64,000 bases of DNA from Escherichia coli (GTDB lineage: Bacteria; Pseudomonadota; Gammaproteobacteria; Enterobacterales; Enterobacteriaceae), in NCBI RefSeq assembly GCF_041886205.1, contig NZ_CP169029.1. One strand, given 5' to 3'. Positions 10,675 to 59,475 of this stretch are shown here, piece after piece. Position numbers and translations under genes: made by a program. Below the pieces are notes generated by a model that did no database searches, was not told the origin of the DNA, and worked only from the letters and a program-made list of their open reading frames with translations. Position 1 is the stretch's first letter. Every line of letters begins with the position of its first letter.

Positions 10675-10679
10675 TCGTC

Positions 10680-11123: not shown

Positions 11124-11125
11124 GA

Positions 11126-25343: not shown

Positions 25344-25397
25344 TGTCGGATCTTCCCTTACCCCACTGCGGGTAAGGGGCTAATAACAGGAACAACG

Positions 25398-26792: not shown

Positions 26793-26793
26793 T

Positions 26794-28272: not shown

Positions 28273-28299
28273 GTTGTTGTTTTCGGTTCCGACAACGGT

Positions 28300-28790
28300 T
28301 GCCGGGTGCAGCGTAAAACGCCTTATCCATCCTACGGTTCTGTGCTCGGGACCTGTAGGCCTGATAAGACGCGTCAGCGTCGCATCAGGCACTGAATGCC
28401 GGATGCGGCGTGAACGCCTTATCCGGCCTACGGTTCTGTGCTCGGATCTTGTAGGCCTGATAAGACGCGCCAGCGTCGCATCAGGCACTGAATGCCGGAT
28501 GCGGCGTAAAACGCCTTATCCGGCCTACGGTTCTGTGCTCGGGTCTTGTAGGCCTGATAAGACGCGTCAGCGTCGCATCAGGCACTGAATGCCGGATGCG
28601 GCGTGAACGCCTTATCCGGCCTACGGTTCTGTGCTCGGATCTTGTAGGCCTGATAAGACGCGCCAGCGTCGCATCAGGCACTGAATGCCGGATGCGGCGT
28701 GAACGCCTTATCCGGCCTACGGTTCTGTGCTCGGGTCTTGTAGGCCTGATAAGACGCGCCAGCGTCGCATCAGGCAAAAAACGGCAACGA
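28300..28790. repeat. BIME/REP array: about five tandem ~96-bp units of paired REP palindromes
   Basis: unit gccggatgcggcgtgaacgccttatccggcctacggttctgtgctcgg.tcttgtaggcctgataagacgcg.cagcgtcgcatcaggcactgaat recurring with 95-97 bp period (anchors at 28381, 28477, 28574, 28669, 28765). Confidence 0.9.
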
Positions 28791-28836
28791 ACAAAACAAA
28801 CGCAGCCTCACCTGGCATCAAATTTATGAGGAAAAA

Positions 28837-30117
28837 ATGAAATTACTTATTCTGGGCAACCACACTTGCGGCAATCGTGGCGACAGCGCCATCTTGCGTG
28901 GCTTACTTGATGCCATCAACATCCTCAATCCACACGCCGAAGTGGACGTGATGAGCCGCTATCCGGTCAGTTCTTCCTGGCTGCTCAACCGCCCGGTAAT
29001 GGGCGATCCGCTGTTCCTGCAAATGAAACAACACAACAGCGCGGCGGGCGTTGTCGGGCGCGTTAAAAAAGTCCTCCGTCGCCGCTACCAGCATCAGGTA
29101 TTGCTCTCACGCGTCACCGACACTGGCAAGCTGCGTAATATCGCCATCGCCCAGGGATTCACCGACTTCGTGCGCTTGCTGTCAGGTTACGACGCCATTA
29201 TTCAGGTCGGCGGATCGTTTTTTGTCGATCTCTATGGTGTGCCGCAGTTTGAACACGCACTTTGCACGTTTATGGCGAAAAAGCCGCTGTTTATGATTGG
29301 TCACAGCGTCGGTCCCTTCCAGGATGAGCAATTTAACCAACTGGCGAACTACGTTTTTGGTCACTGCGATGCGTTGATCCTGCGCGAATCGGTCAGCCTT
29401 GATTTGATGAAACGCAGCAATATCACCACTGCAAAAGTTGAACATGGCGTCGATACCGCGTGGCTGGTCGATCACCACACAGAAGATTTCACCGCCAGCT
29501 ATGCCGTCCAACACTGGCTGGACGTTGCCGCACAACAGAAAACGGTGGCAATTACCCTGCGCGAACTGGCACCGTTCGACAAACGCCTCGGCACCACTCA
29601 ACAAGCGTATGAAAAAGCCTTTGCCGGGGTGGTCAATCGCATTCTCGACGGAGGCTATCAGGTCATTGCGCTCTCCACCTGTACGGGCATCGACAGCTAT
29701 AACAAAGACGACCGCATGGTAGCGCTCAATCTGCGCCAGCACATCAGCGATCCTGCCCGTTACCACGTAGTGATGGATGAACTCAACGATCTGGAAATGG
29801 GCAAAATTCTCGGGGCCTGTGAACTCACCGTCGGTACGCGCCTGCACTCCGCCATTATCTCGATGAATTTTGCCACTCCGGCAATTGCCATCAACTACGA
29901 ACATAAATCCGCCGGGATTATGCAACAACTGGGGCTGCCAGAGATGGCGATTGATATCCGTCATTTACTGGACGGCAGCTTGCAAGCGATGGTTGCGGAT
30001 ACCTTAGGCCAACTTCCGGCGCTGAACGCGCGACTTAACGAAGCCGTCAGTCGTGAACGTCAGACGGGAATGCAGATGGTGCAATCTGTGCTTGAGCGCA
30101 TCGGGGAGGCGAAATGA
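28837..30117 (+). CDS. wcaK: Colanic acid pyruvyl transferase WcaK
   Basis: 426-aa ORF MKLLILGNHTCGNRGDSAI; polysaccharide pyruvyl transferase family. Confidence 0.88.
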   Translation: MKLLILGNHTCGNRGDSAILRGLLDAINILNPHAEVDVMSRYPVSSSWLLNRPVMGDPLFLQMKQHNSAAGVVGRVKKVLRRRYQHQVLLSRVTDTGKLRNIAIAQGFTDFVRLLSGYDAIIQVGGSFFVDLYGVPQFEHALCTFMAKKPLFMIGHSVGPFQDEQFNQLANYVFGHCDALILRESVSLDLMKRSNITTAKVEHGVDTAWLVDHHTEDFTASYAVQHWLDVAAQQKTVAITLRELAPFDKRLGTTQQAYEKAFAGVVNRILDGGYQVIALSTCTGIDSYNKDDRMVALNLRQHISDPARYHVVMDELNDLEMGKILGACELTVGTRLHSAIISMNFATPAIAINYEHKSAGIMQQLGLPEMAIDIRHLLDGSLQAMVADTLGQLPALNARLNEAVSRERQTGMQMVQSVLERIGEAK

Positions 30118-31334
30118 AGGTCGGCTTCTTTTTACTGAAATTTCCGCTGTCGTCGGAAACCTTCGTCCTCAATCAAATTACCGCGTTTATTGATATGGGA
30201 TTTGAGGTGGAGATCGTCGCGTTGCAAAAAGGCGATACAGAGAACACCCACGCGGCATGGACGAAATACAACCTTGCCGCCAGAACCCGCTGGTTACAGG
30301 ACGAACCTACGGGCAAAGTGGCGAAACTGCGCCACCGCGCCAGCCAGACGTTACGCGGCATACATCGTAAAAATACCTGGCAGGCGCTCAACCTCAAACG
30401 CTATGGTGCCGAGTCGCGGAACCTGATTTTGTCTGCCATTTGCGGCCAGGTCGTAGCACCGCTTCATGCCGATGTCTTTATCGCTCACTTTGGTCCCGCA
30501 GGGGTAACCGCAGCAAAACTCCGCGAACTGGGTGTCATTCGCGGCAAAATTGCCACTATCTTCCACGGTATTGATATCTCCAGTCGGGAGGTGCTCAACC
30601 ATTACACTCCCGAATATCAGCAACTGTTCCGCCGCGGCGATCTGATGCTACCAATAAGCGATCTGTGGGCCGGAAGGCTGCAAAAAATGGGCTGCCCGAG
30701 GGAAAAAATCGCCGTATCGCGCATGGGCGTGGACATGACGCGTTTTAGCCCGCGTCCGGTGAAAGCGCCCGCAACGCCGCTGGAAATCATCTCCGTCGCA
30801 CGCTTAACCGAAAAAAAAGGCCTGCATGTGGCGATCGAAGCCTGCCGTCAGTTGAAAGAGCAGGGCATGGCATTTCGCTATCGCATCCTCGGCATTGGCC
30901 CGTGGGAACGACGCCTGCGCACCCTCATCGAACAATATCAACTGGAAGATGTGGTAGATATGCCGGGCTTTAAACCGAGCCATGAAGTGAAAGAGATGCT
31001 CGATGACGCGGATGTCTTCCTGTTGCCATCGGTAACGGGCGCGGATGGCGATATGGAAGGTATTCCGGTGGCACTAATGGAAGCGATGGCGGTCGGCATT
31101 CCGGTGGTTTCTACTCTGCATAGCGGAATACCTGAATTGGTGGAGGCCGATAAATCCGGCTGGCTGGTGCCTGAGAACGATGCTCGCGCTCTGGCACAAC
31201 GTCTGGCGACGTTTAGCCAACTGGACACCGACGAACTGGCTCCGGTCGTCAAACGTGCGCGCGAAAAAGTCGAACACGATTTTAACCAGCAGGTGATCAA
31301 TCGAGAACTCGCCAGCTTGCTGCAGGCTTTATAG
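30114..31334 (+). CDS. wcaL: Colanic acid glycosyltransferase WcaL (GT family 4)
   Basis: 406-aa ORF overlapping wcaK stop. Confidence 0.88.
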
Positions 31335-31344
31335 AGGAGAACGC

Positions 31345-32739
31345 ATGCCATTTAAAAAACTCTCCCGACGCACCTTCCTGACGGCAAGCTCGGCGCTTGC
31401 CTTCCTCCATACCCCTTTCGCTCGCGCACTTCCGGCCCGACAAAGCGTTAACATTAACGACTACAATCCACACGACTGGATCGCCTCATTTAAACAAGCC
31501 TTCAGCGAAGGGCAAACGGTCGTCGTGCCTGCCGGATTGGCTTGTGACAATATCAACACCGGCATCTTTATCCCTCCCGGTAAAACGTTACACATCCTTG
31601 GAAGCCTGCGCGGCAATGGCAGAGGGCGATTTGTCTTACAGGACGGCAGCCAGGTGACAGGGGAGGAGGGCAGCAGTATGCATAACATCACCCTGGATGT
31701 GCGCGGCTCTGACTGCACCATCAAAGGTCTGGCGATGAGCGGCTTTGGCCCGGTAACGCAGATTTATATCGGCGGCAAAAACAAACGGGTCATGCGCAAC
31801 CTGACCATCGATAACCTCACTGTCAGCCACGCTAATTACGCCATCTTACGCCAGGGATTTCATAACCAGATAATCGGTGCCAACATCACCAACTGTAAGT
31901 TCAGCGACTTACAGGGCGACGCCATTGAATGGAACGTGGCAATTAACGACAGTGATATTTTGATCTCCGACCATGTCATCGAGCGCATCAACTGTACTAA
32001 CGGCAAAATCAACTGGGGCATCGGCATAGGCCTTGCGGGAAGTACCTACAATAACAATTACCCGGAAGACCAGGCAGTGAAAAACTTTGTTGTGGCGAAT
32101 ATCACAGGATCGGATTGTCGGCAGTTGATCCATGTTGAAAATGGTAAACATTTTGTTATTCGTAATATCAAAGCCAGCAATATCACGCCGGATTTCAGTA
32201 AGAAAGCAGGTATTGATAACGCGACGGTCGCTATTTACGGTTGTGAGAATTTCGTGATTGATAATATTGAAATGATTAATAGCGCCGGGATGTTAATCGG
32301 CTATGGGGTAATTAAAGGCAAATATCTCTCGATACCGCAAAATTTCCGAGTGAATAATATTCAGCTGGATAACACCCATCTTGCTTATAAATTGCGCGGT
32401 ATCCAAATCTCCGCCGGGAATGCTGTCTCCTTTGTGGCGCTGACTAACATTGAGATGAAGCGTGCCTCGCTTGAGCTACACAACAAACCGCAACATCTTT
32501 TTATGCGAAATATCAAGGTGATGCAGGAATCCTCAGTTGGACCCGCATTGAGCATGAACTTCGACATGCGCAAAGACGTTCGCGGCGTGTTTATGGCGAA
32601 AAAAGAAACACTGCTGTCTCTTGCAAATGTTCATGCGGTGAATGAAAGAGGGCAAAGCTCCGTCGATATCGACAGGATTAATCACCATATTGTTAATGTG
32701 GAAAAGATTAACTTTAGATTGCCGGAACGGAGAGAGTAG
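31345..32739 (+). CDS. wcaM: Colanic acid biosynthesis protein WcaM (secreted, beta-helix-like)
   Basis: 464-aa ORF with Tat/Sec-like N-terminus [20 protein letters not shown]. Confidence 0.88.
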
Positions 32740-32896
32740 ATTTGCGACCATTCATAAACTTACTGGATATAATGTTCTAAAAGATTATAATCCTCACACT
32801 AACTGTTAAAGCTGGGGCTGGGCAGCATTGACTACTCAGGGAAGGTACTCATCTTTATCTTGTGTTTCTTACGTAACAACCAGACTAAAGTGATTT

Positions 32897-33892
32897 ATGA
32901 ACGATAACGTTTTGCTCATAGGAGCTTCCGGATTCGTAGGAACCCGACTACTTGAAACGGCAATTGCTGACTTTAATATCAAGAACCTGGACAAACAGCA
33001 GAGCCACTTTTATCCAGAAATCACACAGATTGGTGATGTTCGTGATCAACAGGCACTCGACCAGGCGTTAGCCGGTTTTGACACTGTTGTGCTACTGGCA
33101 GCGGAACACCGCGATGACGTCAGCCCTACTTCTCTCTATTATGATGTCAACGTTCAGGGTACCCGCAATGTGCTGGCGGCCATGGAAAAAAATGGCGTTA
33201 AAAATATCATCTTTACCAGTTCCGTTGCTGTTTATGGTTTGAACAAACACAACCCTGACGAAAACCATCCACACGATCCCTTCAACCACTACGGCAAAAG
33301 TAAGTGGCAGGCAGAGGAAGTGCTGCGTGAATGGTATAACAAAGCACCAACAGAACGTTCATTAACCATCATCCGTCCTACCGTTATCTTCGGTGAACGG
33401 AACCGCGGTAACGTCTATAACTTGCTGAAACAGATCGCTGGCGGCAAGTTTATGATGGTGGGCGCAGGGACTAACTATAAGTCCATGGCTTATGTTGGAA
33501 ACATTGTTGAGTTTATCAAGTACAAACTGAAGAATGTTGCCGCAGGTTACGAGGTTTATAACTACGTTGATAAGCCAGACCTGAACATGAACCAGTTGGT
33601 TGCTGAAGTTGAACAAAGCCTGAACAAAAAGATCCCTTCTATGCACTTGCCTTACCCACTAGGAATGCTGGGTGGATATTGCTTTGATATCCTGAGCAAA
33701 ATTACGGGCAAAAAATACGCTGTCAGCTCTGTGCGCGTGAAAAAATTCTGCGCAACAACACAGTTTGACGCAACGAAAGTGCATTCTTCAGGTTTTGTGG
33801 CACCGTATACGCTGTCGCAAGGTCTGGATCGAACTCTGCAGTATGAATTCGTCCATGCCAAAAAAGACGACATAACGTTTGTTTCTGAGTAA
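32897..33892 (+). CDS. gne: NAD-dependent 4-epimerase of the Gne/Z3206 type (GlcNAc/GalNAc epimerase family)
   Basis: 331-aa SDR ORF MNDNVLLIGASGFVGTRLL with YGKSK catalytic motif; lies between wcaM and galF as in O157/O55-type loci. Confidence 0.75.
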   Translation: MNDNVLLIGASGFVGTRLLETAIADFNIKNLDKQQSHFYPEITQIGDVRDQQALDQALAGFDTVVLLAAEHRDDVSPTSLYYDVNVQGTRNVLAAMEKNGVKNIIFTSSVAVYGLNKHNPDENHPHDPFNHYGKSKWQAEEVLREWYNKAPTERSLTIIRPTVIFGERNRGNVYNLLKQIAGGKFMMVGAGTNYKSMAYVGNIVEFIKYKLKNVAAGYEVYNYVDKPDLNMNQLVAEVEQSLNKKIPSMHLPYPLGMLGGYCFDILSKITGKKYAVSSVRVKKFCATTQFDATKVHSSGFVAPYTLSQGLDRTLQYEFVHAKKDDITFVSE

Positions 33893-34134
33893 TGCAGACG
33901 AGTCAGAGAAAAAAGGACCAGGTTGGACTACGATTATTCGGAAAGAGGTACTGATTAAATTATCAGTATGTGGATTTCCGAGTAATCCGAGTAACCCAGA
34001 TGCTGATGGTGTGTAGTGTTATCGTAAGGTTTAATCAAAGTTATGCGGAACTAAGCTTTGGTATATAGCCATAACGTTTGGCTAACCTATGGCAATAATT
34101 TACGCACTATCAGCCACTTAGAGGTAGGAAAAGA

Positions 34135-35028
34135 ATGACGAATTTAAAAGCAGTTATACCGGTAGCAGGTCTTGGGATGCATATGTTGCCTGCCACTAAG
34201 GCGATTCCCAAAGAGATGCTACCGATCGTCGACAAGCCAATGATTCAGTACATTGTTGACGAGATTGTGGCTGCAGGGATCAAAGAAATCCTCCTGGTAA
34301 CTCACGCGTCCAAGAACGCAGTCGAAAACCACTTCGACACCTCTTATGAATTAGAATCTCTCCTTGAACAGCGCGTGAAGCGTCAACTACTGGCGGAAGT
34401 ACAATCTATCTGTCCGCCGGGCGTGACCATTATGAACGTGCGTCAGGGTGAACCTTTAGGTTTAGGCCACTCCATTTTATGTGCGCGACCTGCCATTGGT
34501 GACAATCCATTTGTCGTGGTGCTGCCAGACGTTGTGATCGACGACGCCAGCGCCGACCCGTTGCGTTACAACCTTGCTGCCATGATTGCGCGCTTCAATG
34601 AAACGGGCCGTAGCCAGGTGCTGGCAAAACGTATGCCGGGTGACCTCTCTGAATACTCCGTCATCCAGACCAAAGAACCGCTGGATCGTGAAGGTAAAGT
34701 CAGCCGCATTGTTGAATTTATCGAAAAACCGGATCAGCCGCAGACGCTGGACTCAGACATAATGGCCGTTGGTCGCTATGTGCTTTCTGCCGATATTTGG
34801 CCGGAACTTGAACGCACTCAGCCTGGTGCATGGGGACGTATTCAGCTGACTGATGCCATTGCTGAACTGGCGAAAAAACAGTCCGTTGATGCCATGCTGA
34901 TGACAGGTGACAGCTACGACTGCGGTAAAAAAATGGGTTATATGCAGGCGTTTGTGAAGTATGGACTACGCAACTTGAAAGAAGGGGCGAAGTTCCGCAA
35001 AGGTATCGAGAAGCTGTTAAGCGAATAA
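34135..35028 (+). CDS. galF: UTP-glucose-1-phosphate uridylyltransferase-like regulatory subunit GalF
   Basis: 297-aa [42 protein letters not shown]. Confidence 0.93.
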
Positions 35029-35254
35029 TGAAAATCTGACCGAATGTAACGGTTGATAAGGAAATAATAACGGCAGTGAAAAACTATAGATCAATAAATA
35101 TCACTGCTGTTGAGCGTTTATAATTAACTATGCTACCAATGAATAAATAGTGTGCAGATATGTATTTTTTGTTTGGTAGTCTTGTTTCTCCCTCTGAATA
35201 ATAAGATAATAAACGCTTGGAGATGATTTTTTTAACATGGATTATCATTTCGTA

Positions 35255-35288
35255 CACTGGTAGCGATTAAGCCAGGGGCGGTAGCGTG
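35255..35288 (+). promoter_or_regulatory. JUMPstart/ops element in the O-antigen cluster leader
   Basis: cactggtagcgattaagccaggGGCGGTAGcgtg; ops core at 35277-35284; second copy of the motif seen upstream of wza. Confidence 0.85.
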
Positions 35289-35346
35289 CATAAATTTTAA
35301 TGCTTATCAAAACTATTAGCATTAAAAATATATAAGAAATTCTCAA

Positions 35347-36129
35347 ATGAACAAAGAAACCGTTTCAATAATTATGCCCGTTTACAATGGGGCCAAAACT
35401 ATAATCTCATCAGTAGAATCAATTATACATCAATCTTATCAAGATTTTGTTTTGTATATCATTGACGATTGTAGCACCGATGATACATTTTCATTAATCA
35501 ACAGTCGATACAAAAACAATCAGAAAATAAGAATATTGCGTAACAAGACAAATTTAGGTGTTGCAGAAAGTCGAAATTATGGAATAGAAATGGCCACGGG
35601 GAAATATATTTCTTTTTGTGATGCGGATGATTTGTGGCACGAGAAAAAATTAGAGCGTCAAATCGAAGTGTTAAATAATGAATGTGTAGATGTGGTATGT
35701 TCTAATTATTATGTTATAGATAACAAAAGAAATATTGTTGGCGAAGTTAATGCTCCTCATGTGATAAATTATAGAAAAATGCTCATGAAAAACTACATAG
35801 GGAATTTGACAGGAATCTATAATGCCAACAAATTGGGTAAGTTTTATCAAAAAAAGATTGGTCACGAGGATTATTTGATGTGGCTGGAAATAATTAATAA
35901 AACAAATGGTGCTATTTGTATTCAAGATAATCTGGCGTATTACATGCGTTCAAATAATTCACTATCGGGTAATAAAATTAAAGCTGCAAAATGGACATGG
36001 AGTATATATAGAGAACATTTATATTTGTCCTTTCCAAAAACATTATATTATTTTTTATTATATGCTTCAAATGGAGTCATGAAAAAAATAACACATTCAC
36101 TATTAAGGAGAAAGGAGACTAAAAAGTGA
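35347..36129 (+). CDS. wbdN: O-antigen glycosyltransferase (GT family 2), O157-type WbdN
   Basis: 260-aa AT-rich ORF; SIIMPVYNG...DDCSTDDT...DADD GT-2 motifs; first gene after JUMPstart. Confidence 0.8.
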   Translation: MNKETVSIIMPVYNGAKTIISSVESIIHQSYQDFVLYIIDDCSTDDTFSLINSRYKNNQKIRILRNKTNLGVAESRNYGIEMATGKYISFCDADDLWHEKKLERQIEVLNNECVDVVCSNYYVIDNKRNIVGEVNAPHVINYRKMLMKNYIGNLTGIYNANKLGKFYQKKIGHEDYLMWLEIINKTNGAICIQDNLAYYMRSNNSLSGNKIKAAKWTWSIYREHLYLSFPKTLYYFLLYASNGVMKKITHSLLRRKETKK

Positions 36130-37310
36130 AGTCAGCGGCTAAGTTGATTTTTTTATTCCTATTTACACTTTATAGTCTCCAGTTGTATGGGGTTATCATA
36201 GATGATCGTATAACAAATTTTGATACAAAGGTATTAACTAGTATTATAATTATATTTCAGATTTTTTTTGTTTTATTATTTTATCTAACGATTATAAATG
36301 AAAGAAAACAGCAGAAAAAATTTATCGTGAACTGGGAGCTAAAGTTAATACTCGTTTTCCTTTTTGTGACTATAGAAATTGCTGCTGTAGTTTTATTTCT
36401 TAAAGAAGGTATTCCTATATTTGATGATGATCCAGGGGGGGCTAAACTTAGAATAGCTGAAGGTAATGGACTTTACATTAGATATATTAAGTATTTTGGT
36501 AATATAGTTGTGTTTGCATTAATTATTCTTTATGATGAGCATAAATTCAAACAGAGGACCATCATATTTGTATATTTTACAACGATTGCTTTATTTGGTT
36601 ATCGTTCTGAATTGGTGTTGCTCATTCTTCAATATATATTGATTACCAATATCCTGTCAAAGGATAACCGTAATCCTAAAATAAAAAGAATAATAGGGTA
36701 TTTTTTATTGGTAGGGGTTGTATGCTCGTTGTTTTATCTAAGTTTAGGACAAGACGGAGAACAAAATGACTCATATAATAATATGTTAAGGATAATTAAT
36801 AGGTTAACAATAGAGCAAGTTGAAAGTGTTCCATATGTTGTTTCTGAATCTATTAAGAACGATTTCTTTCCGACACCAGAGTTAGAAAAGGAATTAAAAG
36901 CAATAATAAATAGAATACAGGGAATAAAGCATCAAGACTTATTTTATGGAGAACGGTTACATAAACAAGTATTTGGAGACATGGGAGCAAATTTTTTATC
37001 AGTTACTACGTATGGAGCAGAACTATTAGTTTTTTTTGGTTTTCTCTGTGTATTCATTATCCCTTTAGGGATATATATACCTTTTTATCTTTTAAAGAGA
37101 ATGAAAAAAACCCATAGCTCGATAAACTGCGCATTCTATTCATATATCATTATGATTTTATTGCAATACTTAGTGGCTGGGAATGCATCGGCCTTCTTTT
37201 TTGGTCCTTTTCTCTCCGTATTGATAATGTGTACTCCTCTGATCTTATTGCATGATACGTTAAAGAGATTATCACAAAATGAAAATATCAGTTATAACTG
37301 TGACTTATAA
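36126..37310 (+). CDS. wzy: O-antigen polymerase Wzy (O157-type)
   Basis: 394-aa highly hydrophobic multi-pass ORF, GTG start, low GC. Confidence 0.78.
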   Translation: MKSAAKLIFLFLFTLYSLQLYGVIIDDRITNFDTKVLTSIIIIFQIFFVLLFYLTIINERKQQKKFIVNWELKLILVFLFVTIEIAAVVLFLKEGIPIFDDDPGGAKLRIAEGNGLYIRYIKYFGNIVVFALIILYDEHKFKQRTIIFVYFTTIALFGYRSELVLLILQYILITNILSKDNRNPKIKRIIGYFLLVGVVCSLFYLSLGQDGEQNDSYNNMLRIINRLTIEQVESVPYVVSESIKNDFFPTPELEKELKAIINRIQGIKHQDLFYGERLHKQVFGDMGANFLSVTTYGAELLVFFGFLCVFIIPLGIYIPFYLLKRMKKTHSSINCAFYSYIIMILLQYLVAGNASAFFFGPFLSVLIMCTPLILLHDTLKRLSQNENISYNCDL

Positions 37311-38025
37311 TAATGCTGAAGGGTTAGAAAAAACTTTAAGTAGTTTATCAATTTTAAAAATAAAACCTTTTGAGATTATTATAGTTGATGGCGGCTCTAC
37401 AGATGGAACGAATCGTGTCATTAGTAGATTTACTAGTATGAATATTACACATGTTTATGAAAAAGATGAAGGGATATATGATGCGATGAATAAGGGTCGA
37501 ATGTTGGCCAAAGGCGACTTAATACATTATTTAAACGCCGGCGATAGCGTAATTGGAGATATATATAAAAATATCAAAGAGCCATGTTTGATTAAAGTTG
37601 GCCTTTTCGAAAATGATAAACTTCTGGGATTTTCTTCTATAACCCATTCAAATACAGGGTATTGTCATCAAGGGGTGATTTTCCCAAAGAATCATTCAGA
37701 ATATGATCTAAGGTATAAAATATGTGCTGATTATAAGCTTATTCAAGAGGTGTTTCCTGAAGGGTTAAGATCTCTATCTTTGATTACTTCGGGTTATGTA
37801 AAATATGATATGGGGGGAGTATCTTCAAAAAAAAGAATTTTAAGAGATAAAGAGCTTGCCAAAATTATGTTTGAAAAAAACAAAAAAAACCTTATTAAGT
37901 TTATTCCAATTTCAATAATCAAAATTTTATTCCCTGAACGTTTAAGAAGAGTATTGCGGAAAATGCAATATATTTGTCTAACTTTATTCTTCATGAAGAA
38001 TAGTTCACCATATGATAATGAATAA
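37279..38025 (+). CDS. wbdO: O-antigen glycosyltransferase (GT family 2), O157-type WbdO
   Basis: 248-aa ORF MKISVITVTYNNAEGL...IVDGGSTDGT; paralogous to wcaE. Confidence 0.8.
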   Translation: MKISVITVTYNNAEGLEKTLSSLSILKIKPFEIIIVDGGSTDGTNRVISRFTSMNITHVYEKDEGIYDAMNKGRMLAKGDLIHYLNAGDSVIGDIYKNIKEPCLIKVGLFENDKLLGFSSITHSNTGYCHQGVIFPKNHSEYDLRYKICADYKLIQEVFPEGLRSLSLITSGYVKYDMGGVSSKKRILRDKELAKIMFEKNKKNLIKFIPISIIKILFPERLRRVLRKMQYICLTLFFMKNSSPYDNE

Positions 38026-39403
38026 AATCAAAAAAATACTTAAATTTTGCACTTTAAAAAAATATGATACATCAAGTGCTTTAGGTAGAGAACAGGAAAG
38101 GTACAGGATTATATCCTTGTCTGTTATTTCAAGTTTGATTAGTAAAATACTCTCACTACTTTCTCTTATATTAACTGTAAGTTTAACTTTACCTTATTTA
38201 GGACAAGAGAGATTTGGTGTATGGATGACTATTACCAGTCTTGGTGCTGCTCTGACATTTTTGGACTTAGGTATAGGAAATGCATTAACAAACAGGATCG
38301 CACATTCATTTGCGTGTGGCAAAAATTTAAAGATGAGTCGGCAAATTAGTGGTGGGCTCACTTTGCTGGCTGGATTATCGTTTGTCATAACTGCAATATG
38401 CTATATTACTTCTGGCATGATTGATTGGCAACTAGTAATAAAAGGTATAAACGAGAATGTGTATGCAGAGTTACAACACTCAATTAAAGTCTTTGTAATC
38501 ATATTTGGACTTGGAATTTATTCAAATGGTGTGCAAAAAGTTTATATGGGAATACAAAAAGCCTATATAAGTAATATTGTTAATGCCATATTTATATTGT
38601 TATCTATTATTACTCTAGTAATATCGTCGAAACTACATGCGGGACTACCAGTTTTAATTGTCAGCACTCTTGGTATTCAATACATATCGGGAATCTATTT
38701 AACAATTAATCTTATTATAAAGCGATTAATAAAGTTTACAAAAGTTAACATACATGCTAAAAGAGAAGCTCCATATTTGATATTAAATGGTTTTTTCTTT
38801 TTTATTTTACAGTTAGGCACTCTGGCAACATGGAGTGGTGATAACTTTATAATATCTATAACATTGGGTGTTACTTATGTTGCTGTTTTTAGCATTACAC
38901 AGAGATTATTTCAAATATCTACGGTCCCTCTTACGATTTATAACATCCCGTTATGGGCTGCTTATGCAGATGCTCATGCACGCAATGATACTCAATTTAT
39001 AAAAAAGACGCTCAGAACATCATTGAAAATAGTGGGTATTTTATCATTCTTATTGGCCTTCATATTAGTAGTGTTCGGTAGTGAAGTCGTTAATATTTGG
39101 ACAGAAGGAAAGATTCAGGTACCTCGAACATTCATAATAGCTTATGCTTTATGGTCTGTTATTGATGCTTTTTCGAATACATTTGCAAGCTTTTTAAATG
39201 GTTTGAACATAGTTAAACAACAAATGCTTGCTGTTGTAACATTGATATTGATCGCAATTCCAGCAAAATACATCATAGTTAGCCATTTTGGGTTAACTGT
39301 TATGTTGTACTGCTTCATTTTTATATATATTGTAAATTACTTTATATGGTATAAATGTAGTTTTAAAAAACATATCGATAGACAGTTAAATATAAGAGGA
39401 TGA
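38012..39403 (+). CDS. wzx: O-antigen flippase Wzx (O157-type)
   Basis: 463-aa polytopic membrane ORF. Confidence 0.8.
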   Translation: MIMNKIKKILKFCTLKKYDTSSALGREQERYRIISLSVISSLISKILSLLSLILTVSLTLPYLGQERFGVWMTITSLGAALTFLDLGIGNALTNRIAHSFACGKNLKMSRQISGGLTLLAGLSFVITAICYITSGMIDWQLVIKGINENVYAELQHSIKVFVIIFGLGIYSNGVQKVYMGIQKAYISNIVNAIFILLSIITLVISSKLHAGLPVLIVSTLGIQYISGIYLTINLIIKRLIKFTKVNIHAKREAPYLILNGFFFFILQLGTLATWSGDNFIISITLGVTYVAVFSITQRLFQISTVPLTIYNIPLWAAYADAHARNDTQFIKKTLRTSLKIVGILSFLLAFILVVFGSEVVNIWTEGKIQVPRTFIIAYALWSVIDAFSNTFASFLNGLNIVKQQMLAVVTLILIAIPAKYIIVSHFGLTVMLYCFIFIYIVNYFIWYKCSFKKHIDRQLNIRG

Positions 39404-39405
39404 AA

Positions 39406-40500
39406 ATGAAATATATACCAGTTTACCAACCGTCATTGACAGGAAAAGAAAAAGAATATGTAAATGAATGTCTGGACTCAACGTGGATTTCATCAAAAGG
39501 AAACTATATTCAGAAGTTTGAAAATAAATTTGCGGAACAAAACCATGTGCAATATGCAACTACTGTAAGTAATGGAACGGTTGCTCTTCATTTAGCTTTG
39601 TTAGCGTTAGGTATATCGGAAGGAGATGAAGTTATTGTTCCAACACTGACATATATAGCATCAGTTAATGCTATAAAATACACAGGAGCCACCCCCATTT
39701 TCGTTGATTCAGATAATGAAACTTGGCAAATGTCTGTTAGTGACATAGAACAAAAAATCACTAATAAAACTAAAGCTATTATGTGTGTCCATTTATACGG
39801 ACATCCATGTGATATGGAACAAATTGTAGAACTGGCCAAAAGTAGAAATTTGTTTGTAATTGAAGATTGCGCTGAAGCCTTTGGTTCTAAATATAAAGGT
39901 AAATATGTGGGAACATTTGGAGATATTTCTACTTTTAGCTTTTTTGGAAATAAAACTATTACTACAGGTGAAGGTGGAATGGTTGTCACGAATGACAAAA
40001 CACTTTATGACCGTTGTTTACATTTTAAAGGCCAAGGATTAGCTGTACATAGGCAATATTGGCATGACGTTATAGGCTACAATTATAGGATGACAAATAT
40101 CTGCGCTGCTATAGGATTAGCCCAGTTAGAACAAGCTGATGATTTTATATCACGAAAACGTGAAATTGCTGATATTTATAAAAAAAATATCAACAGTCTT
40201 GTACAAGTCCACAAGGAAAGTAAAGATGTTTTTCACACTTATTGGATGGTCTCAATTCTAACTAGGACCGCAGAGGAAAGAGAGGAATTAAGGAATCACC
40301 TTGCAGATAAACTCATCGAAACAAGGCCAGTTTTTTACCCTGTCCACACGATGCCAATGTACTCGGAAAAATATCAAAAGCACCCTATAGCTGAGGATCT
40401 TGGTTGGCGTGGAATTAATCTACCTAGTTTCCCCAGCCTATCGAATGAGCAAGTTATTTATATTTGTGAATCTATTAACGAATTTTATAGTGATAAATAG
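39406..40500 (+). CDS. per: GDP-perosamine synthase (DegT/aminotransferase family), Per/RfbE
   Basis: ORF 39400-40500; canonical MKYIPVYQPSLTGKEKEYVNECLDSTWISSKG; PLP-dependent sugar aminotransferase fold. Confidence 0.88.
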   Translation: MKYIPVYQPSLTGKEKEYVNECLDSTWISSKGNYIQKFENKFAEQNHVQYATTVSNGTVALHLALLALGISEGDEVIVPTLTYIASVNAIKYTGATPIFVDSDNETWQMSVSDIEQKITNKTKAIMCVHLYGHPCDMEQIVELAKSRNLFVIEDCAEAFGSKYKGKYVGTFGDISTFSFFGNKTITTGEGGMVVTNDKTLYDRCLHFKGQGLAVHRQYWHDVIGYNYRMTNICAAIGLAQLEQADDFISRKREIADIYKKNINSLVQVHKESKDVFHTYWMVSILTRTAEEREELRNHLADKLIETRPVFYPVHTMPMYSEKYQKHPIAEDLGWRGINLPSFPSLSNEQVIYICESINEFYSDK

Positions 40501-40524
40501 CCTAAAATATTGTAAAGGTCATTC

Positions 40525-41739
40525 ATGAAAATTGCGTTGAATTCAGATGGATTTTACGAGTGGGGCGGTGGAATTGATTTTATTAAATATATTCTGTCAA
40601 TATTAGAAACGAAACCAGAAATATGTATCGATATTCTTTTACCGAGAAATGATATACATTCTCTTATAAGAGAAAAAGCATTTCCTTTTAAAAGTATATT
40701 AAAAGCAATTTTAAAGAGGGAAAGGCCTCGATGGATTTCATTAAATAGATTTAATGAGCAATACTATAGAGATGCCTTTACACAAAATAATATAGAGACG
40801 AATCTTACCTTTATTAAAAGTAAGAGCTCTGCCTTTTATTCATATTTTGATAGTAGCGATTGTGATGTTATTCTTCCTTGCATGCGTGTTCCTTCGGGAA
40901 ATTTGAATAAAAAAGCATGGATTGGTTATATTTATGACTTTCAACACTGTTACTATCCTTCATTTTTTAGTAAGCGAGAAATAGATCAAAGGAATGTGTT
41001 TTTTAAATTGATGCTCAATTGCGCTAACAATATTATTGTTAATGCACATTCAGTTATTACCGATGCAAATAAATATGTTGGGAATTATTCTGCAAAACTA
41101 CATTCTCTTCCATTTAGTCCATGCCCTCAATTAAAATGGTTTGCTGATTACTCTGGTAATATTGCCAAATATAATATTGACAAGGATTATTTTATAATTT
41201 GCAATCAATTTTGGAAACATAAAGATCATGCAACTGCTTTTAGGGCATTTAAAATTTATACTGAATATAATCCTGATGTTTATTTAGTATGCACGGGAGC
41301 TACTCAAGATTATCGATTCCCTGGATATTTTAATGAATTGATGGTTTTGGCAAAAAAGCTCGGAATTGAATCGAAAATTAAGATATTAGGGCATATACCT
41401 AAACTTGAACAAATTGAATTAATCAAAAATTGCATTGCTGTAATACAACCAACCTTATTTGAAGGCGGGCCTGGAGGGGGGGTAACATTTGACGCTATTG
41501 CATTAGGGAAAAAAGTTATACTATCTGACATAGATGTCAATAAAGAAGTTAATTGCGGTGATGTATATTTCTTTCAGGCAAAAAACCATTATTCATTAAA
41601 TGACGCGATGGTAAAAGCTGATGAATCTAAAATTTTTTATGAACCTACAACTCTGATAGAATTGGGTCTCAAAAGACGCAATGCGTGTGCAGATTTTCTT
41701 TTAGATGTTGTGAAACAAGAAATTGAATCCCGATCTTAA
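40525..41739 (+). CDS. wbdP: O-antigen glycosyltransferase (GT family 4-like), O157-type WbdP
   Basis: 404-aa AT-rich ORF between per and gmd. Confidence 0.75.
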
Positions 41740-41758
41740 TATATTCAAGAGGTATATA

Positions 41759-42877
41759 ATGACTAAAGTCGCTCTTATTACAGGTGTAACTGGACAAGAT
41801 GGATCTTATCTAGCTGAGTTTTTGCTTGATAAAGGGTATGAAGTTCATGGTATCAAACGCCGAGCCTCATCTTTTAATACAGAACGCATAGACCATATTT
41901 ATCAAGATCCACATGGTTCTAACCCAAATTTTCACTTGCACTATGGAGATCTGACTGATTCATCTAACCTCACTAGAATTCTAAAGGAGGTACAGCCAGA
42001 TGAAGTATATAATTTAGCTGCTATGAGTCACGTAGCAGTTTCTTTTGAGTCTCCAGAATATACAGCCGATGTCGATGCAATTGGTACATTACGTTTACTG
42101 GAAGCAATTCGCTTTTTAGGATTGGAAAACAAAACGCGTTTCTATCAAGCTTCAACCTCAGAATTATATGGACTTGTTCAGGAAATCCCTCAAAAAGAAT
42201 CCACCCCTTTTTATCCTCGTTCCCCTTATGCAGTTGCAAAACTTTACGCATATTGGATCACGGTAAATTATCGAGAGTCATATGGTATTTATGCATGTAA
42301 TGGTATATTGTTCAATCATGAATCTCCACGCCGTGGAGAAACGTTTGTAACAAGGAAAATTACTCGAGGACTTGCAAATATTGCACAAGGCTTGGAATCA
42401 TGTTTGTATTTAGGGAATATGGATTCGTTACGAGATTGGGGACATGCAAAAGATTATGTTAGAATGCAATGGTTGATGTTACAACAGGAGCAACCCGAAG
42501 ATTTTGTGATTGCAACAGGAGTCCAATACTCAGTCCGTCAGTTTGTCGAAATGGCAGCAGCACAACTTGGTATTAAGATGAGCTTTGTTGGTAAAGGAAT
42601 CGAAGAAAAAGGCATTGTAGATTCGGTTGAAGGACAGGATGCTCCAGGTGTGAAACCAGGTGATGTCATTGTTGCTGTTGATCCTCGTTATTTCCGACCA
42701 GCTGAAGTTGATACTTTGCTTGGAGATCCGAGCAAAGCTAATCTCAAACTTGGTTGGAGACCAGAAATTACTCTTGCTGAAATGATTTCTGAAATGGTTG
42801 CCAAAGATCTTGAAGCCGCTAAAAAACATTCTCTTTTAAAATCGCATGGTTTTTCTGTAAGCTTAGCTCTGGAATGA
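41759..42877 (+). CDS. gmd: GDP-mannose 4,6-dehydratase (O-antigen copy)
   Basis: ORF 41723-42877; canonical start [35 protein letters not shown] (372 aa); paralog of 18550-19671 with different codon usage. Confidence 0.9.
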
Positions 42878-42879
42878 TG

Positions 42880-43845
42880 ATGAATAAGCAACGTATTTTT
42901 ATTGCTGGTCACCAAGGAATGGTTGGATCAGCTATTACCCGACGCCTCAAACAACGTGATGATGTTGAGTTGGTTTTGCGTACTCGGGATGAATTGAACT
43001 TGTTGGATAGTAGCGCTGTTTTGGATTTTTTTTCTTCACAGAAAATCGACCAGGTTTATTTGGCAGCAGCAAAAGTCGGAGGTATTTTAGCTAACAGTTC
43101 TTATCCTGCCGATTTTATATATGAGAATATAATGATAGAGGCGAATGTCATTCATGCTGCCCACAAAAATAATGTAAATAAACTGCTTTTCCTCGGTTCG
43201 TCGTGTATTTATCCTAAGTTAGCACACCAACCGATTATGGAAGACGAATTATTACAAGGGAAACTTGAGCCAACAAATGAACCTTATGCTATCGCAAAAA
43301 TTGCAGGTATTAAATTATGTGAATCTTATAACCGTCAGTTTGGGCGTGATTACCGTTCAGTAATGCCAACCAATCTTTATGGTCCAAATGACAATTTTCA
43401 TCCAAGTAATTCTCATGTGATTCCGGCGCTTTTGCGCCGCTTTCATGATGCTGTGGAAAACAATTCTCCGAATGTTGTTGTTTGGGGAAGTGGTACTCCA
43501 AAGCGTGAATTCTTACATGTAGATGATATGGCTTCTGCAAGCATTTATGTCATGGAGATGCCATACGATATATGGCAAAAAAATACTAAAGTAATGTTGT
43601 CTCATATCAATATTGGAACAGGTATTGACTGCACGATTTGTGAGCTTGCGGAAACAATAGCAAAAGTTGTAGGTTATAAAGGGCATATTACGTTCGATAC
43701 AACAAAGCCCGATGGAGCCCCTCGAAAACTACTTGATGTAACGCTTCTTCATCAACTAGGTTGGAATCATAAAATTACCCTTCACAAGGGTCTTGAAAAT
43801 ACATACAACTGGTTTCTTGAAAACCAACTTCAATATCGGGGGTAA
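42880..43845 (+). CDS. fcl: GDP-L-fucose synthase homolog (O-antigen copy; acts as GDP-4-keto-6-deoxymannose reductase/epimerase family)
   Basis: ORF 42874-43845 [19 protein letters not shown]; paralog of 19674-20639. Confidence 0.88.
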
Positions 43846-43847
43846 TA

Positions 43848-44357
43848 ATGTTTTTACATTCCCAAGACTTTGCCACAATTGTAAGGTCTACTCCTCTTAT
43901 TTCTATAGATTTGATTGTGGAAAACGAGTTTGGCGAAATTTTGCTAGGAAAACGAATCAACCGCCCGGCACAGGGCTATTGGTTCGTTCCTGGTGGTAGG
44001 GTGTTGAAAGATGAAAAATTGCAGACAGCCTTTGAACGATTGACAGAAATCGAACTAGGAATTCGTTTGCCTCTCTCTGTGGGTAAGTTTTATGGTATCT
44101 GGCAGCACTTCTACGAAGACAATAGTATGGGGGGAGACTTTTCAACGCATTATATAGTTATAGCATTCCTTCTTAAATTACAACCAAACATTTTGAAATT
44201 ACCGAAGTCACAACATAATGCTTATTGCTGGCTATCGCGAGCAAAGCTGATAAATGATGACGATGTGCATTATAATTGTCGCGCATATTTTAACAATAAA
44301 ACAAATGATGCGATTGGCTTAGATAATAAGGATATAATATGTCTGATGCGCCAATAA
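43848..44357 (+). CDS. wbdQ: GDP-mannose mannosyl hydrolase homolog (Nudix), WbdQ
   Basis: 169-aa [29 protein letters not shown], paralog of gmm. Confidence 0.85.
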
Positions 44358-45787
44358 TTGCTGTAGTTATGGCCGGTGGTACAGGCAGTCGTCTTTGGCC
44401 ACTTTCTCGTGAACTATATCCAAAGCAGTTTTTACAACTCTCTGGTGATAACACCTTGTTACAAACGACTTTGCTACGACTTTCAGGCCTATCATGTCAA
44501 AAACCATTAGTGATAACAAATGAACAGCATCGCTTTGTTGTGGCTGAACAGTTAAGGGAAATAAATAAATTAAATGGTAATATTATTCTAGAACCATGCG
44601 GGCGAAATACTGCACCAGCAATAGCGATATCTGCGTTTCATGCGTTAAAACGTAATCCTCAGGAAGATCCATTGCTTCTAGTTCTTGCGGCAGACCACGT
44701 TATAGCTAAAGAAAGTGTTTTCTGTGATGCTATTAAAAATGCAACTCCCATCGCTAATCAAGGTAAAATTGTAACGTTTGGAATTATACCAGAATATGCT
44801 GAAACTGGTTATGGGTATATTGAGAGAGGTGAACTATCTGTACCGCTTCAAGGGCATGAAAATACTGGTTTTTATTATGTAAATAAGTTTGTTGAAAAGC
44901 CTAATCGTGAAACCGCAGAATTGTATGTGACTTCTGGTAATCACTATTGGAATAGTGGAATATTCATGTTTAAGGCATCTGTTTATCTTGAGGAATTGAG
45001 AAAATTTAGACCTGACATTTACAATGTTTGTGAACAGGTTGCCTCATCCTCATACATTGATCTAGATTTTATTCGATTATCAAAAGAACAATTTCAAGAT
45101 TGTCCTGCTGAATCTATTGATTTTGCTGTAATGGAAAAAACAGAAAAATGTGTTGTATGCCCTGTTGATATTGGTTGGAGTGACGTTGGATCTTGGCAAT
45201 CGTTATGGGACATTAGTCTAAAATCGAAAACAGGAGATGTATGTAAAGGTGATATATTAACCTATGATACTAAGAATAATTATATCTACTCTGAGTCAGC
45301 GTTGGTAGCCGCCATTGGAATTGAAGATATGGTTATCGTGCAAACTAAAGATGCCGTTCTTGTGTCTAAAAAGAGTGATGTACAGCATGTAAAAAAAATA
45401 GTCGAAATGCTTAAATTGCAGCAACGTACAGAGTATATTAGTCATCGTGAAGTTTTCCGACCATGGGGAAAATTTGATTCGATTGACCAAGGTGAGCGAT
45501 ACAAAGTCAAGAAAATTATTGTGAAACCTGGTGAGGGGCTTTCTTTAAGGATGCATCACCATCGTTCTGAACATTGGATCGTGCTTTCTGGTACAGCAAA
45601 AGTAACCCTTGGCGATAAAACTAAACTAGTCACCGCAAATGAATCGATATACATTCCCCTTGGCGCAGCGTATAGTCTTGAGAATCCGGGCATAATCCCT
45701 CTTAATCTTATTGAAGTCAGTTCAGGGGATTATTTGGGAGAGGATGATATTATAAGACAGAAAGAACGTTACAAACATGAAGATTAA
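44339..45787 (+). CDS. manC: Mannose-1-phosphate guanylyltransferase (O-antigen copy)
   Basis: 482-aa [27 protein letters not shown]; paralog of cpsB. Confidence 0.92.
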
Positions 45788-45790
45788 CAT

Positions 45791-47161
45791 ATGAAATCTT
45801 TAACCTGCTTTAAAGCCTATGATATTCGCGGGAAATTAGGCGAAGAACTGAATGAAGATATTGCCTGGCGCATTGGGCGTGCCTATGGCGAATTTCTCAA
45901 ACCGAAAACCATTGTTTTAGGCGGTGATGTCCGCCTCACCAGCGAAACCTTAAAACTGGCGCTGGCGAAAGGTTTACAGGATGCGGGCGTCGATGTGCTG
46001 GATATCGGTATGTCCGGCACCGAAGAGATCTATTTCGCCACGTTCCATCTCGGCGTGGATGGCGGCATTGAAGTTACCGCCAGCCATAATCCGATGGATT
46101 ATAACGGCATGAAACTGGTGCGCGAAGGGGCTCGCCCAATCAGCGGTGATACCGGACTGCGCGACGTCCAGCGTCTGGCAGAAGCCAACGACTTTCCTCC
46201 CGTCGATGAAACCAAACGCGGTCGCTATCAGCAAATCAACCTGCGTGACGCTTACGTTGATCACCTGTTCGGTTATATCAATGTCAAAAACCTCACGCCG
46301 CTCAAGCTGGTGATTAACTCCGGGAATGGCGCAGCGGGTCCGGTGGTGGACGCCATTGAAGCCCGCTTTAAAACCCTCGGCGCGCCCGTGGAATTGATCA
46401 AAGTGCACAACACGCCCGACGGCAATTTCCCCAACGGTATTCCTAATCCGCTGCTGCCTGAATGCCGCGACGACACCCGCAATGCGGTCATCAAACACGG
46501 CGCGGATATGGGCATTGCCTTTGATGGCGATTTTGACCGCTGTTTTCTGTTTGACGAAAAAGGGCAGTTTATCGAGGGCTACTACATTGTCGGCCTGCTG
46601 GCAGAAGCGTTCCTCGAAAAAAATCCCGGCGCGAAGATCATCCACGATCCGCGTCTCTCCTGGAACACCGTTGATGTGGTGACTGCCGCAGGCGGCACCC
46701 CGGTAATGTCGAAAACCGGACACGCCTTTATTAAAGAACGTATGCGCAAGGAAGACGCCATCTACGGTGGCGAAATGAGCGCCCACCATTACTTCCGTGA
46801 TTTCGCTTACTGCGACAGCGGCATGATCCCGTGGCTGCTGGTCGCCGAACTGGTGTGCCTGAAAGGAAAAACGCTGGGCGAACTGGTGCGCGACCGGATG
46901 GCTGCGTTTCCGGCAAGCGGTGAGATCAACAGCAAACTGGCGCAACCCGTTGAGGCGATTAATCGCGTCGAACAGCATTTTAGCCGTGAGGCGCTGGCGG
47001 TGGATCGTACCGATGGCATCAGCATGACCTTTGCCGACTGGCGCTTTAACCTGCGCTCTTCCAACACCGAACCGGTGGTGCGGTTGAATGTGGAATCACG
47101 CGGTGATGTAAAGCTAATGGAAAAGAAAACTAAAGCTCTTCTTAAATTGCTAAGTGAGTGA
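45791..47161 (+). CDS. manB: Phosphomannomutase (O-antigen copy)
   Basis: 456-aa [18 protein letters not shown]; central ~1.1 kb nearly identical in DNA to cpsG. Confidence 0.92.
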
Positions 47162-47379: not shown

Positions 47380-48370
47380 ACAAATGTGCCTTATATAAAA
47401 AGGAGAACAAAATGGAACTTAAAATAATTGAGACAATAGATTTTTATTATCCCTGTTTACGATATTATAGCCAAAGTTGTATCCTGCATCAGTCCTGCAA
47501 TATTTCACGAGTGCTTTGTTAACTGAATACATGTCTGCCATTTTCCAGATGATAACGACGTCATCACAATTGATGGTAAAACACTTCGGCACACTTATGA
47601 CAAGAGTCGTCGCAGAGGAGTGGTTCATGTCATTAGTGTGTTTCAGCAATGCACAGTCTGGTCCTCGGATAGATCAAGACGGATGAGAAACCTAATGCGT
47701 TCACAGTTATTCATGAACTTTCTAAAATGATGGGTATTAAAGGAAAAATAATCATAACTGATGCGATGGCTTGCCAGAAAGATATTGCAGAGAAGATATA
47801 AAAACAGAGATGTGATTATTTATTCGCTGTAAAAGGAAATAAGAGTCGGCTTAATAGAGTCTTTGAGGAGATATTTACGCTGAAAGAATTAAATAATCCA
47901 AAACATAACAGTTACGCAATTAGTGAAAAGAGGCACGGCAGAGACGATGTCCGTCTTCATATTGTTTGAGATGCTCCTGATGAGCTTATTGATTTCACGT
48001 TTGAATGGAAAGGGCTGCAGAATTTATGAATGGCAGTCCACTTTCTCTCAATAATAGCAGAGCAAAAGAAAGAATCCGAAATGACGATCAAATATTATAT
48101 TAGATCTGCTGCTTTAACCGCAGAGAAGTTCGCCACAGTAAATCGAAATCACTGGCGCATGGAGAATAAGTTGCACAGTAGCCTGATGTGGTAATGAATG
48201 AAATCGACTATAATATAAGAAGGCGAGTTGCATTCGAATGATTTTCTAGAATGCGGCACATCGCTACTAATATCTGACAATGATAATGTATTCAAGGCAG
48301 GATTATCATGTAAGATGCGAAAAGCAGTCATGGACAGAAACTTCCTAGCGTCAGGCATTGCAGCGTGCGG
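47380..48370 (+). mobile_element. H-repeat / ISAs1-family transposase remnant (frameshifted, internally deleted)
   Basis: Broken frames spell MELKIIETID..., [91 protein letters not shown]: collinear with H-rpt (ISAs1) transposases but interrupted by stops. Confidence 0.85.
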
Positions 48371-48423
48371 GCTTTCATAATCTTGCATTGGTTTTGATAA
48401 GATATTTCTTTGGAGATGGGAAA

Positions 48424-54278: not shown

Positions 54279-59475
<5,197 letters not shown>

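Follow-up and report, generated by a model that had tools for sequence, protein, structure and literature searches.

Why does the phosphomannomutase gene manB of an E. coli O157 O-antigen cluster share most of its DNA sequence, almost base for base, with cpsG, the corresponding gene of the colanic-acid cluster? Both genes lie in a stretch of 64,000 nucleotides (contig NZ_CP169029.1 of assembly GCF_041886205.1), here called the window, which comes from an E. coli O157 strain and spans its colanic-acid, O157 O-antigen and his loci. The O157 cluster occupies 35.3-49.1 kb in the order wbdN, wzy, wbdO, wzx, per, wbdP, gmd, fcl, gmm, manC, manB, ISAs1 remnant and perB/wbdR, flanked by the colanic-acid cluster on the left and by gnd-ugd-wzz-his on the right. 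The ISAs1-family (H-repeat) transposase remnant between manB and perB/wbdR, at the flank of the cluster (47449..48380, + strand), has coordinates taken over from the RefSeq annotation of an O157:H16 strain (offset +20383) and is annotated in O157:H7 Sakai as 'ISEc1 Family: ISAs1 partial'.

The colanic-acid gene cpsG (23973..25343) sits between cpsB and wcaJ; manB (45791..47161) follows the low-GC manC. Both are 1,371 bp long and on the + strand, with an offset of 21,818 bp. In composition manB stands apart from the adjoining manC, with a GC content of 0.54 (GC3 0.61) against 0.38. The four PGM_PMM domains I-IV (PF02878, PF02879, PF02880 and PF00408) score above the Pfam gathering threshold in CpsG and ManB alike. 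The active-site motifs of this family are the phosphoserine loop TASHNP, the metal loop DGDFDR and the sugar loop GEMSAHH, and all three are present in both translations. By annotation, the two products are predicted to be the same phosphomannomutase, converting mannose-6-P to mannose-1-P; in Sakai and in the O157:H16 strain the gene at the manB position is itself annotated cpsG/phosphomannomutase. The proteins differ at 8 of 456 residues.

Further to the right, the his operon of the window contains an anomalous, junk-like block (54276-57250). The draft assembly GCA_036254195.1 matches the window up to 54275, after which there are 2.4 kb without similarity to hisF, hisA, hisH or hisB and with runs of CA, TG and TC, and a further ~0.7 kb that is 79% identical to hisB/hisC with many indels. 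The block is unrelated to the relationship between cpsG and manB, and it means that the window is not uniformly trustworthy.

Pairwise alignment of 23966-25304 with 45785-47122 (blastn) yields 98.58% identity over 1,339 bp, with 18 mismatches and one gap, clear of the ~95% below which the initial annotation would have given up its claim of near-identity. The gap falls at the extreme 5' edge, and gene-to-gene the comparison is ungapped. The repeat reported there as about 1.1 kb long is real and extends further than claimed. Its most similar part had been placed correctly, at ~24200-25290 and ~46020-47110: across gene positions 220-1301 (24192-25273 / 46010-47091; 1,082 bp, below called the core) there is one mismatch, at position 657 (24629/46447), and the two longest stretches free of mismatches measure 437 and 644 bp. 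Identity decays from gene position 1302 and reaches ~60% at 1320-1371. Divergence had been described at both ends; it is confined to the last ~50-70 bp on the 3' side, as the 5' ~200 bp are still 95% identical. Gene positions 1-219 hold 10 mismatches (95.4% identity), located in codon 3 (AAA in cpsG vs TCT in manB) and at positions 72, 87, 90, 126, 144, 216 and 219. Ahead of the ATG and past the stop codon, cpsG and manB lie in unrelated sequence. A recombination junction between the two clusters, as had been suggested, describes this less well, since no crossover joins them and both loci retain their own flanks.

The other paralog pairs in the two clusters are very different, as had been observed, with DNA identities of 70.9% for gmd, 69.9% for fcl, 58.7% for gmm and 60.7% for manC/cpsB, and with longest exact runs of 14, 14, 13 and 12 bp, respectively. 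Codon usage separates them as well: the O-cluster copies have a GC3 of 0.25-0.36 and the colanic-acid copies one of 0.61-0.69, with manB (0.61) as the exception. Among other cpsG-type alleles, the core differs at 14-42 sites. With 35 mismatches expected, the probability of finding at most one is 2e-14, so the near-identity of cpsG and manB is not due to chance.

The core also carries a long antisense open reading frame on the - strand (45974..46978, with its twin at 24156-25160). The twins differ, as reported, at about three residues (exactly 3). We reject them as genes: they have no Pfam match, the frame is broken by one or two stop codons in the Sakai and O157:H16 alleles, and 85 of the 97 variable sites among cpsG-type sequences fall at third codon positions of the sense frame. 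They are by-products.

To place the core among related alleles, we compared cpsG and manB of the window, Sakai and the O157:H16 strain, together with cpsG of O36, O23 and O7 strains. The manB of the O36 strain was discarded as an unconverted control, because this gene comes from another lineage of phosphomannomutases (21% amino-acid and 46% DNA identity). Outside manB, the O157 cluster of the window differs from Sakai at 19 of 12,372 sites (~0.15%) and from the O157:H16 strain at 6 (~0.05%). The core of manB differs from that of each of these two strains at 35 sites, and from its own cpsG at one. Relative to the remaining sites of the cluster, the manB core is thus 21- to 67-fold more divergent from these strains (Fisher p = 1e-25 for Sakai and 8e-33 for O157:H16). 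Within their own genomes, the manB and cpsG cores of Sakai differ at 34 sites (96.9% identity) and those of O157:H16 at 23 (97.9%), compared with 99.9% identity in the window. Paralogs in one genome that are closer to each other than orthologs in close relatives are a hallmark of gene conversion, the process that had been proposed for this pair. A second hallmark is a discrete tract, here bordered on one side by locus-specific signatures (positions 7-9, 126 and 144) and on the other by a locus-specific tail (1320-1371). We conclude that most of manB has very probably been overwritten recently by cpsG through gene conversion, leaving a mosaic of three layers; the sequence behind this reading is that of two assemblies, taken at the assembly level.

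The first layer is a candidate native remnant of the original O157 manB at the 3' end (47110..47161, + strand; gene positions 1320-1371), which encodes 16 residues. It is identical in four O157 manB genes (window, Sakai, O157:H16 and a further locus, L034), differs from every cpsG compared at ~20 sites, and is low in GC, with 0.37 over the last 70 bp of manB vs 0.56 in cpsG. Matches to the remnant together with the DNA downstream of it are confined to 307 O157-type genomes. The second layer is an older cpsG-type segment at the 5' end (45791..46009, + strand), which is separated by just 2-3 mismatches from manB of Sakai and O157:H16, as opposed to 10 from cpsG of the window. It carries the signature common to all O157 manB genes compared (TCT at codon 3, and positions 126 and 144). 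The third layer is the putative recent conversion tract, at gene positions 220-1301 (46010..47091, + strand), whose counterpart in cpsG, at the same offset of 21,818 bp, is the donor segment 24192..25273 (+ strand). The 3' end of the tract falls between positions 1270 and 1301. Its 5' end falls between 220 and 264, or at 145-157 if positions 216 and 219 represent an unconverted patch. Positions 157 and 159 look converted and 216 and 219 unconverted, which means that the tract may be patchy or the product of two events.

The single core mismatch (46447, + strand; gene position 657) is a T private to manB of the window. All 10 other cpsG-type sequences tabulated, among them manB of GCA_036254195.1, have a C at this position, so the substitution postdates the conversion. 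The complete manB allele of the window was not found in 5,426 complete E. coli genomes, where the best match is 98.2% identical. A search for a native, full-length manB of the O157 type with a wobble-degenerate pattern of the C-terminal peptide gave 0 matches in a collection of one genome per species, in which Salmonella O30 and Citrobacter F90 are not expected.

When and where the overwriting took place is less certain than the overwriting itself. The two copies could have been inherited together, already converted, from the strain that donated the O157 cluster, in which case nothing would have happened in the present lineage. The left backbone of the window (1-9000) is 100% identical to that of an O36 chicken isolate, and this perfect match runs on up to cpsG position 725 (window ~24698) only, giving way to 2-5% divergence through wcaM. 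The 3' half of cpsG and everything downstream of it may have arrived with the O157 cluster. Over positions 220-725, however, the backbone type and the imported type of cpsG are the same, which is compatible with either order of events, and joint inheritance would alter the timing of the conversion and not its mechanism. We regard it as a serious possibility, although not the one we favour; conversion of manB by cpsG is the preferred account under both timings.

A near-perfect repeat of this kind also raises the question whether it exists in the cell at all. During assembly or polishing, reads of one copy could have been used to build or correct the other, erasing a true divergence of ~3%. A perfect repeat of ~1 kb is beyond the resolution of short-read methods, and the stretch at 54276-57250 points to uneven assembly quality in the window. 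Against this, GCA_036254195.1 independently has the same converted manB and carries the two loci together on a single 114-kb contig. The cpsG of this assembly agrees with that of the window at 100% of its bases, and its manB core likewise agrees at 100% with the cpsG beside it, with 0 mismatches in the tract; the near-identity is hence not peculiar to the window. Furthermore, the 10 differences in the first 219 bp were kept at spacings of 3-72 bp, and an assembler that resolves these should also resolve a core that is 3% divergent. The mismatch at position 657 indicates that the copies were called separately, and the tract ends at informative and biologically sensible sites. An artefact is in our judgement highly unlikely.

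Three lines of evidence identify cpsG as the donor and manB as the recipient of the conversion. The core is colanic-type in composition (GC 0.56; GC3 of manB 0.61), the core allele is the ordinary cpsG of strains without a cpsG-like manB, and the two copies in the window have a private state at position 876 in common. The initial annotation had proposed a comparison with other serogroups to find the donor, and this comparison points to cpsG, as the allele is found at the cpsG locus in O23, O7 and other strains. An O23 strain, which has no manB, carries a cpsG that agrees with the window copy at every base between position 220 and the stop codon other than 876, and the agreement extends 371 bp into wcaJ. 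Eight further loci of varied O types have the same core allele, and the cpsG of an O7 strain also departs from the window copy over this stretch at 876 alone. Compared with these manB-free and other strains, the cpsG core of the window is unaltered bar position 876, as a non-reciprocal transfer out of cpsG predicts. Position 876 itself (46666 in manB and 24848 in cpsG, + strand) is especially informative. All nine loci of the same cpsG allele family differ there from both copies in the window, and it is their sole core difference. Since this lineage-private state sits in both copies, the copying appears to have taken place within one genome.

Copying in the reverse direction, with manB overwriting the cpsG core in the window strain, is not without precedent. 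Over 21.4 kb, assembly GCA_002539225.1 and the window are 99.92% identical, and the cpsG of this assembly equals that of the window except at positions 433 and 582 and in a patch at 583-669, which is base for base the state of the O157:H16-type manB. Short conversions from manB into cpsG thus seem to occur as well. For the core of the window, however, such a direction is scarcely credible: with one mismatch, the allele shared by both copies occupies the cpsG locus, contiguous with wcaJ, in O23, O7 and further strains; it differs at 35 sites from the manB alleles transmitted along with the O157 cluster; and its GC content is of the colanic-acid type. We give next to no credence to the idea that cpsG was recently duplicated or inserted into the O-antigen cluster of this lineage, in place of conversion of an existing manB, although this could account for two near-identical copies 21.8 kb apart. 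In the other O157 clusters examined, manB agrees in position, length, reading frame, 5' signature and native 3' tail; relatives carry an older copy, 3% diverged, at the same site; and identity ends inside the gene on both sides with neither a target duplication nor a mobile-element boundary.

Conversion of manB by cpsG, as we favour it, would have built on an older exchange. In an old event common to all O157 clusters compared, cpsG-type DNA would have replaced nearly all of the native low-GC manB, leaving codon 3 and the last ~52 bp. The GC content, the 3' remnant and literature cited second-hand argue for this replacement. The cpsG-type manB would then have diverged by ~3% from resident cpsG alleles while the cluster moved between lineages. 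In the recent step, a non-reciprocal exchange would have put ~1.05-1.15 kb of the resident cpsG into manB and erased the accumulated differences, either in the lineage of the strain or in the immediate donor of the cluster; one point mutation would have followed. The layers would accordingly number at least two in time, the old replacement in all O157 clusters and the recent, lineage-specific re-homogenisation.

Probably, one direct repeat invaded the other in a RecA-dependent manner, within a single chromosome or across sister chromosomes, and the resulting heteroduplex was then resolved by mismatch repair or by replication. Recombination in E. coli needs roughly 20-30 bp of homology. Exact runs of 437-644 bp in cpsG/manB vs 12-14 bp in the other paralog pairs would explain why conversion is confined to this pair. 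Neither the cpsG nor the manB copy contains a Chi site, so the tract ends have no Chi-based account. The conversion is likely to be functionally near-neutral, because both genes encode the same enzyme with few differing residues; the 85 third-position sites among the 97 variable ones are in keeping with this.

The initial annotation had also recognised the direct repeat as a substrate for deletion, and the repeat has the properties expected of one, namely the same orientation and long uninterrupted identity (437 and 644 bp). Between the repeats lies 25344..45790 (+ strand) with wcaJ, wzxC, wcaK, wcaL, wcaM, gne, galF and the O157 genes wbdN to manC. Unequal crossing-over across the 1.3-kb repeat would remove wcaJ through manC and leave one hybrid gene, and this loss would abolish the O157 antigen and colanic acid together. 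We searched all complete E. coli genomes with a synthetic deletion product, composed of the end of cpsB, the hybrid gene and the DNA downstream of manB. Two records match 100% of the query in one piece: O157:H7 7.1_Anguil, from cattle in Argentina, and CEC13002, from a human in Japan. Both are O157:H7 genomes and distinct from the strain of the window. Their gene order is cpsB, one hybrid gene of 1,371 bp, ISAs1 remnant, perB and gnd, with wcaJ to manC absent. Judged against 68 informative sites in Sakai, each hybrid is a clean single crossover, at gene positions 1113-1123 in one and 1260-1320 in the other, with flanks 100% identical to Sakai. As these are single crossovers at different points, the two genomes represent two independent deletions of 21.4 kb. 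The 7.1_Anguil assembly was built from PacBio reads of a 30-kb library (PMC8553066), which makes a collapsed repeat unlikely in this genome. By term search, the loss of the rfb region is not mentioned in two papers on 7.1_Anguil and CEC13002.

A further reading would see a selected function in this arrangement. Repeated re-homogenisation of manB by cpsG could keep a high-frequency 'eject' switch armed and be selected for evolvability, an idea we hold to be very doubtful. If it were true, O clusters with a cpsG-like manB could shed O-antigen and colanic acid in one RecA event, which could be useful, for example, under phage or antibody pressure. Selection for evolvability would then explain the presence of cpsG-type manB in many unrelated O clusters, and the two O157:H7 deletion genomes would be examples of the switch.

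The conversion has already been published for this gene pair and serogroup, and the deletion for the gene pair. Iguchi et al. (2011, PMC3158064) identified manB as the only gene that diverges between O157 clusters, with an identity to cpsG above 95% and no positive selection (dN/dS 0.045), and attributed its diversity to gene conversion with the genomic homolog cpsG. The original replacement of manB by the colanic-acid gene is credited there to Samuel et al. (2004, J Bacteriol 186:6536). These accounts, the earlier one as cited in the later, concern the same two genes in the same serogroup and reach the same conclusion. The window differs from them as an extreme and very recent case, with a core identity of 99.9% as opposed to 96.9% in Sakai and 97.9% in O157:H16. 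In the long-term evolution experiment (LTEE), where manB and cpsG are 96% identical, the manB-cpsG region was deleted in 10 of 12 populations, and in 7 of these the deletion arose from recombination of one gene with the other (Raeside et al. 2014, PMC4173774). Chimeric phosphomannomutase products have been described in a 2026 preprint (bioRxiv 10.64898/2026.06.14.732165). As in the present case, manB/cpsG direct repeats ~22-23 kb apart recombined in the LTEE, O-antigen and colanic-acid genes were lost and a chimeric gene was left. The LTEE, however, concerns laboratory E. coli B with an O7-type cluster, whereas the substrate here is an O157 cluster and the same deletion product is present in two sequenced O157:H7 isolates.

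RecA-dependent gene conversion drives the concerted evolution of bacterial paralogs such as Salmonella tufA/tufB and the rRNA operons. The cpsG/manB pair resembles these systems in its non-reciprocal transfer, its sharp tract ends and in having paralogs closer than orthologs. In tufA/tufB and the rRNA operons, however, both copies are ancient residents that are continuously kept alike, whereas manB belongs to a horizontally mobile cluster and meets a new resident partner after each transfer. Concerted evolution by gene conversion has reportedly been reviewed by Santoyo and Romero (2005, FEMS Microbiol Rev 29:169).

Other O clusters show a similar architecture. The manB genes of the O7 strain A12 and of the loci L030, L031 and L039 have a high-GC body of the cpsG type, adjoin a low-GC manC (0.35-0.42) and end in a diverged, AT-rich 3' tail. 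Their junctions differ, at around position 1300 or, in L039, around 1100, and so do the 5' ends of manB in other serogroups, with a two-codon deletion in O7. Their identity to cpsG is 95-97%, compared with 99.9% in the core of the window. On a rough estimate from the excess of matched places over genomes, a second cpsG-like copy may be present in about one genome in five. A paper on Salmonella O antigens (PMC3715488) contains nothing on exchange between cpsG and manB.

What the present analysis adds is a very fresh instance of conversion with its tract limits, its direction and a private site shared by both copies, together with a probable reverse patch in a sister strain and two sequenced O157:H7 genomes that carry the predicted deletion. 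Both of these genomes, whose sequences are widely used or published, are missing the rfb region via the manB/cpsG route, apparently unremarked. The cpsG/manB repeat is also a trap for short-read assembly and variant filters. As manB tracks the cpsG of its host and not the cluster in which it resides, it is an unreliable marker for O157 typing and phylogeny. Strains that have been freshly homogenised, with exact runs of 437 and 644 bp in place of the scattered mismatches of Sakai, are expected to shed the O157 antigen and colanic acid more easily, which bears on serotype-based detection and on the keeping of strain stocks.

Two complete O157:H7-lineage genomes, 7.1_Anguil (O157:H7) and CEC13002, lack everything from wcaJ through manC, and each carries a single hybrid cpsG/manB gene in place of the two copies (positions 9974-11344 of the extracted locus in both, on NZ_CP076232.1 and NZ_AP026116.1, respectively). 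The hybrid crossovers in 7.1_Anguil and CEC13002 fall within gene positions 1113-1123 and 1260-1320. In their sequenced form, both genomes therefore retain perB as their only O157 antigen gene, and their colanic-acid cluster is incomplete. The publications on these two strains, when searched by term, yielded no mention of the deletion.

In the window, cpsG contains a recombination junction. The window and the O36 strain VTB97420v are essentially identical from position 1 to ∼24698 (gene position 725/726), and from there through wcaM they differ by 2-5%. The O-antigen region has been replaced in either the window strain or VTB97420v, and the left boundary of this replacement is the cpsG junction at ∼24698. 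GCA_002539225.1, a sister strain that shares the wca/O157 segment, has a cpsG (2629-3999 of its locus) equal to that of the window apart from two single sites (433 and 582 of the gene) and a patch spanning 583-669. This patch is identical to O157:H16-type manB, suggesting that a short tract was converted the other way, from manB to cpsG.

A truncated and frameshifted ISAs1-family (H-repeat) transposase remnant is located between manB and perB (47449-48380) and is kept in the O157 clusters examined. When E. coli genomes were searched for the 3' remnant of O157 manB, one of the 307 matches fell on a plasmid-labelled record. In the wzxC-wcaK spacer (28300-28776), BLAST alignments are shifted by ∼96-97 bp, which indicates that a unit of about 97 bp is repeated in tandem, with a copy number that varies among strains. 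These units are probably the REP-containing repeats described in this spacer by Iguchi et al. (PMC3158064).

The his operon contains an anomalous block (54276-57250), which is covered by none of the complete E. coli genomes. An independent assembly (GCA_036254195.1) matches the window at 99.995% as far as 54275, where similarity ends within hisF. The following 2,375 bp (54276-56650) resemble none of hisF, hisA, hisH and hisB at either the nucleotide or the protein level. Their ORFs do not exceed 123 aa, and they include CA/TG/TC dinucleotide runs. Further downstream, 56651-57365 aligns to hisB/hisC at ∼79% identity with 62 gap columns, and the encoded HisC reaches only 85.6% identity. The block could reflect a poor or chimeric assembly, contaminating DNA, or an insertion.

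Beyond O157, the manB genes of four loci from other O-antigen clusters (L030, 3468-4838; L031, 3467-4837; L039, 674-2044; and L005, apparently O7 strain A12, 24422-25786) have cpsG-type bodies of about 95-97% identity with native AT-rich 3' tails, and each adjoins a low-GC manC. In L039, the junction between cpsG-type and native sequence lies near position 1100 instead of 1300 as elsewhere, and this displacement implies that cpsG-type replacement of manB happened as separate events.
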